Shown: positions 3,001 through 6,000 of the stretch, piece after piece
How positions within the stretch are numbered: the first letter of the stretch is position 1
Layout: each line of letters opens with the position of its first letter
Program-made: the position numbers
Source: a virus
Taxonomy: Duplodnaviria > Heunggongvirae > Uroviricota > Caudoviricetes
Reading direction: 5' to 3' (one strand)
IMG/VR virus record: IMGVR_UViG_2541047123_000042
Span: 1 to 35,222 of that record
Length of the DNA: 35,222 bases

Positions 3001-6000
3001 TACATCGTGGTCATTCCAGTACGCCCACGGGCAGATTTGTCCTGCTCGCTCGTAAGCTCCACGTAAAATTACGTTGTCGAAGGTGGCCCCGTTACCCCAG
3101 ACTTTTAAATATTTCGTATTGTCTGCGTGCCGGTTAATGAAATGGTTTAGTTCTGAGAGAGCATCGCTGATCGACAAAGTATCATCAATACTTCCAGCGA
3201 TACCAGCGCGACTTTAAATGCGGTAAGTACGTTTTTAACCACATCGATTTTGAATACTATTTCATCACATACAAACGATTTATCGTCTACTACCGTTTCA
3301 ATTCCGGTAATCGTGTTTTGTAGCCATTTGGTTAATTCAGCCATTTTTCATTACCGCCCTTTCGGGCGGTCTCCTGATGTTCTGAGGGTGCAGGAATCCC
3401 TCCGGTTAAGGATTAAATTTTATTTACAGAACTGAATTTAATTATTCAGATATACGTATCTGTAACCTTACGAACCTACTCACTGGATGCCTATTTCATA
3501 AAAATAATCCAGTGGGTTTTATCGTTTTTTCCTGTTCGTTGACCGATAACAGGTTTTCTGTCGGTCAGTACCAATATCTGGCGAACAGGTATTTGCGTTT
3601 CATTCCATTTAAAAATCAGAACGCCGGATGGACGCAACACACGAAAGGCTTCTTTAAATCCCTGCCGCAAATCATCACGCTAGGTATCTTTATTCAGCCG
3701 TCCATATTTCTTTCCCATCCAGGCGTTATCACCAACACGCTCAAGATGCGGAGGGTCGAATATAACCATCGAAAAAGATGCGTCTGCAAATGGTAGTGCA
3801 CGAAAATCAGCTATCAGATCAGGACTGATAATCAGGCGTCGTCCATCACACAATGTGTGCTCTTCCTTTCTGATATCGCTAAATATCGCCCGGTCGTCAT
3901 TCTTATCGAACCAGAACATGCGACTGCCACAGCACATGTCGAGGATTGCTGCATGTCCAGTCACTGGCTGCCTCCTTTGCGAAGCCGTTCCGCCCATTCT
4001 TCAAGGGATTTCTCTGCATATTCACCGGACAGGCCATCAATCGGATGCGATTCATTAGCTAACTCTTCTTTTGCTGACAGAATCATGCGTGTAACGTCGA
4101 AAACTTCAGCCAAAGGCTTATTGATAAATCCGTGATTGAAAGCAGCAGCAAGACGGCTTGCGGTATAGTTAATACCCTCGTTGCGAGCCTCAGCACGTAC
4201 TTCATCGAATTTACGCACCAGATACTCAGCATTTGTTTCATTCACTTTCAGATCTCGCGGTACACATTTCCCGCGAAGAAACCCTTCCATTTCGAAAACA
4301 TTCATGCGCATTTGTGTAACTCCGATAACTCGTTAAAACGTTCCATAAACATCCCGTAGGCATGGCTAGGTGCCAGTGGAATCACGTTGAACATCTCTGT
4401 TGCCGGGATGCCTTCCAGTACAGGCCAGAAAGAGCCATCATCAAGCCCGAGATCGCGGCGTTCGGTTGCCAGCATGATAAGATCGGCATATTTCACGGGC
4501 GTACTCATAACTGGGGGTAACCCGTATTTCTCACGGATTACGGCGTCAATTTTTTCTTCCATCCGTTTATAGTCAGGAAGAAGGCGTTTCAGTGGAGCGG
4601 GGATGTCCTGGCAATACGCTTCTGTTGCATCATGCATTAATGCTTCAAAAGCAAATTCCTGCGGTACCAGCTGGCTGCAAAGAACCGCATGTTGGGCGAC
4701 GCTGTAGAAGTGCGAAAGATGACCGGCAAAGCGACAGATATTTGAAAGGGAAACCGCGATATCGTTAATATCGATGTCGTCTTTATTTATCCTGTCATAA
4801 TAAAAATGCTTCCCGGAAAAAGTTTTAATAAATGACATTTTGTTCTCCACGTATATGCGCTGCACCGCGCTGAATTCTGGTAAAAAGAATCCCTCACCAT
4901 CCGGCGATTATTGAGTAAATTACGTTTCCATAAATGCCCCCTCAGGGGCATTTGCAGTAATGAAATCAGGCGGTGAAAGTACCAATAAAGGTTTCTACTT
5001 TGCTGTCCTTGAATTTCTCAACAAGCAGATCACGAAATTCGTTAGCCATTTCTTCCTGCACCGCCTCCAGCTGAATAATGCGCAGAACCAGTACCGGACG
5101 ATCGCCAGTGATAATGCTGAGGCGTAATTTAAACGGACGTTCTTTCAGACCTTCAAACGGAATGCATTTAAATTCAAATGCCACTGGCATAATGTCTTTG
5201 GTCTTCGCTTCGACAGACTCCATCAGGGAGCGTTTGCCGCTGAAGTCATTATCTTCAAAATCAGCGGTCTGGTTTGCTTCAATCGTGATTTTACGGACCG
5301 CCGCAGCCGCTTTTGTTGCCTGAATGGTGTCACCATTAGCATCAAAGCCCACAAGGTAGTCGGCCCAGTCTTCAATCCATTCTGGTTGCCGCCAATCGTA
5401 TCGCGTTTATTGACCCGGCAAACGGGAATGAAACGCCGATGTTTGTGGCGCAGGGCAACCAGATATTCATGAACGACGTGTTCCTGAAGCGCCTGACGGC
5501 CCCCACCATTACCAGTGGTGGAAATCCACCGGCATTTTCCCTGACACCGGATGGAAAGCTGACTGCTAAAAATGCGGATATCAGTGGTAACGTGAATGCG
5601 AACTCCGGGACGCTCAACAACGTCACGATTAACGAGAACTGTCGGGTTCTGGGAAAACTGTCCGCGAACCAGATTGAAGGCGATCTCGTTAAAACAGTGG
5701 GCAAAGCTTTCCCCCGGGACTCCCGTGCACCGGAACGGTGGCCATCAGGGACCATTACCGTCAGGGTTTATGACGATCAGCCGTTTGACCGGCAGATTGT
5801 TATTCCGGCGGTGGCATTCAGCGGCGCTAAACATGAGAAAGAGCATACTGATATTTACTCCTCATGCCGTCTGATAGTGCGGAAAAACGGTGCTGAAATT
5901 TATAACCGTACCGCGCTGGATAATACGCTGATTTACAGTGGCGTTATTGATATGCCTGCCGGTCACGGTCACATGACGCTGGAGTTTTCGGTGTCAGCAT

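Follow-up and report, generated by a model that had tools for sequence, protein, structure and literature searches.

The question raised by the locus described here is how the 3' half of a minus-strand early phage gene, yfdQ, came to abut the end of a plus-strand tail gene, J. The locus lies in a caudoviricete record of IMG/VR, IMGVR_UViG_2541047123_000042, of which the whole stretch of 35,222 nucleotides was analysed and is hereafter called the window. The initial annotation had placed a junction at 5380-5440, where a minus-strand gene would lose its start codon at the very point where plus-strand homology to the C-terminus of J begins, and had attributed it to a deletion removing most of a prophage while keeping its J-lom-stf-effector end. 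The breakpoint indeed maps inside this interval, at 5380-5384, where the two remnants, yfdQ' and J', meet at the pentanucleotide TTCTG. With a probability of about 0.92, we conclude that one intramolecular deletion of about 34.4 kb in a lambdoid prophage integrated in dusA made the yfdQ'/J' joint.

On the left of the joint, the minus-strand frame is open from 5406 to a stop at 4966-4968 and contains no ATG, its first start-like codon being the GTG at 5352; a stop lies in the frame of yfdQ' 8 codons upstream of the joint. In phage PhiR40_1, YfdQ has 274 aa, of which residues 137-274 match the yfdQ' product at 99% identity; the Pfam DUF2303 profile (269 positions) is matched from position 133 to 269 only. 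Homologues being 274 aa long with a proper start, the frame annotated at 4966..5406 is a 3' fragment of an early gene that has lost its 5' 406 bp, its start codon and its promoter.

On the right, the plus-strand frame is open from 5340 to a stop at 6093-6095, with a first ATG at 5439 and no start codon of its own. From 5382/5385 onward its translation is 96% identical to residues 892-1131 of an 1131-aa gpJ, and its DNA is 99.7% identical over 5385-6092 to the intact gpJ gene of AUSMDU00014361. The Pfam Phage_Tail_Tip domain is matched from 54 to 138 of 139 profile positions, its N-terminal side being cut off, and the receptor-binding domain Ig_GpJ_C is complete (1-135 of 135, E = 2e-38). A full-length J encodes about 1130 aa from its own start downstream of tail assembly genes; here the upstream neighbour is the antisense yfdQ'. 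Judged from its sequence, J' is a J-derived pseudogene and not a functional member of the J family. Its origin from J is unambiguous from the Pfam domains and the gpJ alignments, and the retained part, first estimated at ~230 codons, amounts to 235 codons plus the stop.

That these two frames are complete and functional short genes is highly improbable. Both are open, GTG 5352 and ATG 5439 would yield proteins of 128 and 217 aa, respectively, and J' retains a complete receptor-binding domain. Yet the homologues have 274 and 1131 aa, the alignments to them start abruptly at the joint and the Pfam profiles are covered in C-terminal parts only. A promoter scan of 4800-6300 found no sigma-70-like promoter able to drive J' or yfdQ', and the Prokaryotic Genome Annotation Pipeline (PGAP) already marks both fragments as pseudogenes in Escherichia coli EC4115. 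Since both lack a start codon and a promoter and are annotated as pseudogenes, the joint probably has no function of its own.

The pentanucleotide TTCTG is common to both parental sequences, and alignment to the prophage of E. coli 493/89 (described below) on both sides leaves 0 inserted bases. The DNA of SfV orf31 equals the left flank at 100% identity through window position 5384 and shows no relatedness past it. At the joint, the intact J allele of AUSMDU00014361, the closest intact J in the complete-genome set, reads ...GAGTCAGTTTCTG followed by GTTGCC, and the yfdQ strand reads ...CAATCCATTCTG followed by CCAGTG. Microhomologies of 3 bp, from a distant J allele of enterotoxigenic E. coli (ETEC), and of 7 bp, from the J allele of PhiR40_1, had been considered and were replaced by the 5 bp obtained with the 99.7%-identical allele and the full-length prophage. 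Under random joining, junctional homology of at least 5 bp has a probability of ~0.005 (~0.5%). The PGAP annotation of EC4115 shows neither a transposase nor a second att fragment at the joint. The joint thus has the attributes of a microhomology deletion, namely flanks that keep their order and orientation in a reference without the deletion, few shared bases, and no filler, insertion sequence (IS) element or att site. Because of this 5-bp overlap and the lack of filler, IS element and att-like site, RecA-independent, short-homology illegitimate recombination, either by replication slippage or by microhomology-mediated end joining, would be the mechanism.

Chance resemblance does not account for the joint, given E-values of 1e-101 and 1e-167 and its identical occurrence in 203 independent genomes out of 5,426 complete E. 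coli genomes. These include the O157:H7 strain EC4115, whose remnant of ~11-12 kb between yjbK/zur and dusA (ECH74115_RS27455-RS27545) is the same element with the same joint. The same distribution bears on the idea that contigs were wrongly joined at this point. Another part of the window, within stf (7028-7394), is indeed a chimera, and J' carries a patch of three single-nucleotide polymorphisms (SNPs) that matches other J copies; yet the identical joint recurs in 203 independently assembled complete genomes and is annotated there by PGAP, and an assembly artefact has next to no likelihood. At 5822, 5831 and 5839, the three bases of the patch are unlike those in any of the 203 remnant copies or in the ancestral J of 493/89, and agree with J genes found elsewhere (Sp9-like, ETEC and CAU16175). 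The patch stems either from gene conversion over a short tract or from polishing with mis-mapped paralogous reads.

Undeleted copies were sought with a query made of the left arm of the window and the missing half of yfdQ. Intact copies of the left arm and the whole yfdQ, 100% identical, were found, among them those of the O157 strains 493/89 (NZ_CP038412.1) and LSU61 (NZ_CP038336.1). In both strains a lambdoid prophage of ~46-47 kb is inserted at the site of the remnant, with the DUF2713 gene/zur on one side and dusA on the other. From the left, its order is dusA' (attL), two small open reading frames (ORFs), PrtN, exonuclease, DUF551 fragments, methyltransferase and an Eae-like ORF, then yfdR, yfdQ, yfdP, the repressor (cI), a cro-like gene, replication genes and Q. 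The middle is made of three tRNA genes, lysis genes, terminase, capsid, portal and tail genes, and the right end of gpJ (1131 aa), lom, stf, tfa, three nleG genes, a small capsid-like fragment, DinI, int and dusA. With their portal gene frameshifted, these prophages may be defective too.

Against both full-length prophages, the canonical EC4115 remnant aligns as exactly three collinear blocks through dusA, with a left arm of 99.9% identity. The gap between yfdQ and J measures 34,412 bp relative to 493/89 and, read from the alignment coordinates, 34,081 bp relative to LSU61. The remnant has none of the genes that lie in between in the full-length prophage, and is in that sense a defective (cryptic) prophage. 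The end proteins WP_000956557.1, WP_000654815.1, WP_001093918.1, WP_000008211.1, WP_001118000.1, WP_072140863.1, WP_001143816.1 and WP_001217541.1 occur in the remnant as well as in both full-length prophages. For the integrase, the remnant and LSU61 have WP_000332269.1 in common, and 493/89 has WP_000332270.1. The sequenced phage PhiR40_1 offers an independent intact template, on which the flanks of the window map to positions 4364 and ~36371, with ~32.0 kb between the two breakpoints. The proposal that most of a prophage was deleted is thereby borne out by an undeleted lambdoid prophage that sits at the same dusA site and is collinear with the remnant except for one 34.4-kb gap from yfdQ to J. 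As this ancestor carries the leftward yfdQ and the rightward J on one molecule, with the lost interval between them, a single deletion explains the joint.

A different history can be drawn from the dusA prophages of strains GF66.2 and EC09. An SfV-like myovirus at dusA would have shed its interior and acquired the J'-lom-stf-nleG end from a different, lambdoid prophage, through an illegitimate crossover between yfdQ and J and a homologous one in a shared DinI-like region. Such a two-prophage hybrid was favoured at first from GF66.2 and EC09, and was dropped given PhiR40_1 and the full-length O157 prophages. The intact prophages of GF66.2 and EC09 share the int-DinI end of the remnant (and that of GF66.2 the left arm), possess contractile tails and have no J. 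In addition, the block formed by the three nleG genes, the small ORF and DinI has 96.8% identity with the right-hand end of a lambdoid prophage that occupies the ydfJ site in PNUSAE151638, and the crossover within stf in the window itself shows that exchange between prophages happens. Against these stand the full-length lambdoid prophages of the closest relatives, in which both flanks are present at the same site, correctly ordered and oriented, with a left arm at 99.9% identity and matching end proteins, and the same layout in the free genome of PhiR40_1. Replacement would also need two crossovers instead of one, and we consider both the replacement and the route outlined for it very unlikely.

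Some observations nevertheless weigh against a single deletion in a prophage like those of 493/89 and LSU61. The right arm of the remnant is 99.0-99.3% identical to the full-length prophages as compared with 99.9% for the left arm, and the lom gene differs from that of 493/89 at 25 positions (6198-6729), against no more than one to four in the adjacent J'. Either 493/89 and LSU61 carry close cousins of the ancestral prophage and not that prophage itself, or the right arm was later exchanged with other prophages; the clustering of differences in lom suggests that this allele may have been exchanged with another prophage in one lineage. Additionally, the dusA prophages of GF66.2 and EC09 mentioned above are SfV-like myoviruses, so that the module combination found here is not universal at dusA. 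Only the final joint is visible, and earlier nested deletions within the lost interval may have preceded it.

Carried further, this last point leads to stepwise decay, in which successive nested deletions reduced the prophage and the present joint is only the last of them. Decay is ongoing in this remnant, as seen from an independent deletion of 1,464 bp and a nonsense mutation, and a final deletion would erase any earlier joint. The second joint lies at window position 3191, has a 1-bp overlap relative to 493/89, and has taken away the 5' part of the exonuclease gene (intact at 573 bp in 493/89 and LSU61) with the DUF551 fragments. At window position 3681 a Trp codon of the methyltransferase gene is changed to a stop, which is the sole substitution relative to 493/89 over the 2.2 kb that precede the main joint. 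The records inspected nonetheless contain no intermediates, only genomes with a full-length yfdQ or with this joint, and a left arm one substitution away from 493/89 implies little time for many events. Stepwise decay therefore appears unlikely.

Under the single deletion, the starting point would be a lambdoid prophage of ~46-47 kb integrated in the 5' end of dusA. One event would have fused the middle of yfdQ, a leftward early gene, to codon ~896 of the rightward J at TTCTG. With it would have gone yfdQ in its 5' half, yfdP, the switch made of repressor and cro, the replication genes and Q, then the three tRNA genes and the lysis genes, the entire set of head genes, and the tail genes as far as four-fifths of the way through J. 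The immobile remnant left behind, of ~11 kb, would hold attL, the two cargo ORFs, PrtN, early genes in decay, yfdR, yfdQ', J', lom, stf and tfa, continued in the canonical locus by three nleG effector genes, DinI, int and attR/dusA. Such a prophage should be harmless, no longer able to be induced, to replicate, to lyse its host or to form particles, while lom, stf/tfa, the nleG genes (in the canonical locus), DinI and int stay in place. The features of the window and its alignment blocks with 493/89 are collected in the table.

Table. Features of the dusA prophage remnant in the window and blocks of alignment to the full-length prophage of E. coli 493/89
Feature	Position in window	Strand	Basis and remarks
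dusA 5' fragment, displaced; attL	1319-1423	+	PGAP in EC4115: tRNA-dihydrouridine synthase, incomplete, missing C-terminus
Cargo ORFs between attL and PrtN-like gene	1570-2103 and 2300-2473	+	phrog_4350, phrog_2741, function unknown
PrtN-family gene, last of leftward early operon	2521-2802	-	Pfam PyocinActivator E = 4e-23; WP_001093918.1
3'-5' exonuclease pseudogene, cut by second joint	2839-3198	-	PGAP: incomplete, missing N-terminus
S-adenosylmethionine (SAM)-dependent methyltransferase pseudogene	3491-3964	-	PGAP: internal stop
yfdR (5'-deoxynucleotidase), intact	4302-4838	-	WP_000008211.1 in remnant and full-length prophages; weak Pfam YfbR-like match
yfdQ' (DUF2303), 3' 419 bp, residues 137-274 of 274	4966-5384	-	Pfam; protein alignment; PGAP pseudogene ECH74115_RS27500
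Deletion joint, 5-bp microhomology TTCTG without filler	5380-5384	.	Alignments to 493/89, SfV yfdQ and AUSMDU00014361 gpJ
J' (tail-tip gene J), codons 897-1131 plus stop	5385-6092	+	Pfam; protein/DNA alignment; PGAP pseudogene ECH74115_RS27505
lom (Ail/Lom outer-membrane protein), intact	6160-6759	+	Pfam Ail_Lom E = 2e-117; identical to EC4115 remnant copy
stf, side tail fibre, hybrid: 5' part the remnant's own, 3' part Sp9-like	6824-8128	+	SNP switch
Alignment block 1	1-3191		493/89 prophage 62-3252, 99.97%
Alignment block 2	3191-5384		493/89 prophage 4716-6909, 99.95%
Alignment block 3	5380 onward		493/89 prophage 41317 onward, 97.3% over 5380-8467 (stf part Sp9-like in window)

The left end of the remnant has the arrangement of dusA-integrase elements, with an insertion in the 5' end of dusA and a displaced 5' fragment at the far end. 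This dusA' fragment adjoins the DUF2713 gene and the zur side; in K-12 and BL21 the flank continues straight into dusA. Window positions 1316-1422 and 1405-1492 match the two ends of the PhiR40_1 genome. In the canonical loci of EC4115, 493/89 and LSU61 the integrase gene is next to and divergent from dusA, whereas the right side of the window runs into another prophage instead. The int gene and the PrtN-like gene occupy opposite ends of these prophages, so that attP lies between them once the phage genome is circular. The PrtN-family gene may encode an excision or activator factor.

The products of both cargo ORFs, WP_000956557.1 and WP_000654815.1, are present in EC4115, 493/89 and LSU61, and a Pfam scan of the larger one (1570-2103) gave no match. 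The content of the slot between attL and PrtN varies among the elements compared: the two ORFs are found here, a Panacea-domain pair in GF66.2 (extract 21599-22647) and a YafM/YafO toxin-antitoxin pair in PhiR40_1 (222-1212). From this variation, the slot looks like a hotspot for variable cargo or defence genes. The bodies of these elements vary as well, the int-DinI end at dusA being attached to an SfV-like myovirus body in GF66.2 and EC09 or to a lambda-like siphovirus body in PhiR40_1 and 493/89; GF66.2 also has the left arm running from PrtN to yfdQ.

The right side of the window has a composite origin. Positions 1-7394 are the EC4115 dusA locus without indels, differing only at the three positions of the J' patch (5822, 5831 and 5839). 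From 7028 on, the window equals the Sp9-like prophage of EC4115 at 1.72 Mb (nleA, nleH1-2, nleF), followed by the next prophage, and positions 6801-35222 are collinear with this 1.72-Mb region to the end of the window at 99.8% identity. The crossover consequently falls within 7028-7394, where 367 bp of stf are identical in both copies. In EC4115 the two parental loci are 3.5 Mb apart and their stf copies are in direct orientation. Judging from these orientations, a simple exchange between the copies would give a lethal deletion or a megabase-scale duplication joint, not an inversion. The arrangement, in which the lom of the remnant leads to the Sp9-like nleA, is absent from the complete E. coli genomes, none of which covers at least 80% of window positions 1-12500 or is 99% identical over 5900-9500. 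Either a large rearrangement did take place, in a background not sampled among these genomes, or the window is misassembled.

The statement of the initial annotation that the J-lom-stf-effector end was kept accordingly stands in part. It holds for J', lom and the 5' part of stf; from 7028-7394 on, the sequence belongs to the Sp9-like prophage with its nleA, nleH and nleF genes. In the window the element is without its own tfa, three nleG genes, DinI, int and dusA end, and the effector tail end of the remnant should not be judged from this chimeric window alone. Further right, an NleG-family ORF at 8556-9086 has a TTG start and partial coverage of the family, and its counterpart in the Sp9-like prophage of EC4115 is a frameshifted DUF1076 pseudogene.

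One could also imagine that the receptor-binding domain of J', lom and stf were kept, beyond the effector cargo, as a recombination cassette, giving or receiving sequence when tail-tip and tail-fibre parts are exchanged with co-resident lambdoid prophages. We regard this as rather doubtful. If it were true, the stf crossover and the three-SNP patch in J' would be footprints of real exchanges, and the stf crossover would mark a large chromosomal rearrangement anchored on the remnant.

The element itself is already known and its joint already annotated, and its state is one of ordinary prophage decay. A phage region of ~12 kb between yjbK and dusA, absent from Sakai and EDL933, has been reported as "Region 21" of strain SS17 (PMC4321836); the same paper names the region and gives no description of the deletion joint there. 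The paper by Farrugia et al. (2015) on dusA-associated integrase elements, the class to which this element belongs, touches on E. coli O157 only via cited work (PMC4482086), and the paper on the closed genomes of 493/89 and LSU-61 does not mention dusA. Within this literature on SS17, dusA integrases and the 493/89 and LSU-61 closed genomes, no description of the joint was found. The locus provides a base-resolved example of a lambdoid prophage disarmed by one microhomology-mediated deletion, with its lom, tail fibre and type III effector cargo kept. Given its presence in 203 complete genomes and the reported absence of the element from Sakai and EDL933, the joint could be used as a lineage marker within O157:H7. 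Its significance is small beyond such bookkeeping, and the warning on the stf chimera is the more useful practical point.

Relative to the window, the EC4115 remnant keeps tfa, three nleG genes, DinI, int and the dusA end, the window having recombined within stf to the Sp9-like prophage. The full-length dusA prophage has the same integration site and end genes as the remnant, and both breakpoints fall within its yfdQ and gpJ; it differs by keeping the 34.4 kb that encode immunity, replication, lysis, head and tail functions, 1.46 kb near the exonuclease gene and an intact methyltransferase gene, and by its other lom allele. Phage PhiR40_1 has the same layout, with PrtN-like, exo, yfdR, yfdQ, yfdP and cI genes leftward and cro, the late genes, J, lom and stf rightward, and its right end, DinI then a dusA-type int, resembles that of the canonical locus. 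It differs in being only 87-97% identical, in its lack of nleG cargo and in having a toxin-antitoxin pair in place of the two ORFs at its left end. For mEp460, another lambdoid phage that integrates at dusA, the likeness shown is limited to the DinI-int end.

A general parallel is found in the cryptic prophages of K-12, namely CPS-53/KpLE1, Rac, DLP12 and Qin, which are internally deleted to an int-proximal arm with a handful of late or cargo genes; CPS-53 is the source of the names yfdP, yfdQ and yfdR. Their integration sites and content are unlike those of the dusA remnant. The remnant further differs from them in that its undeleted parent survives in sister lineages, so that its deletion can be mapped to the base.

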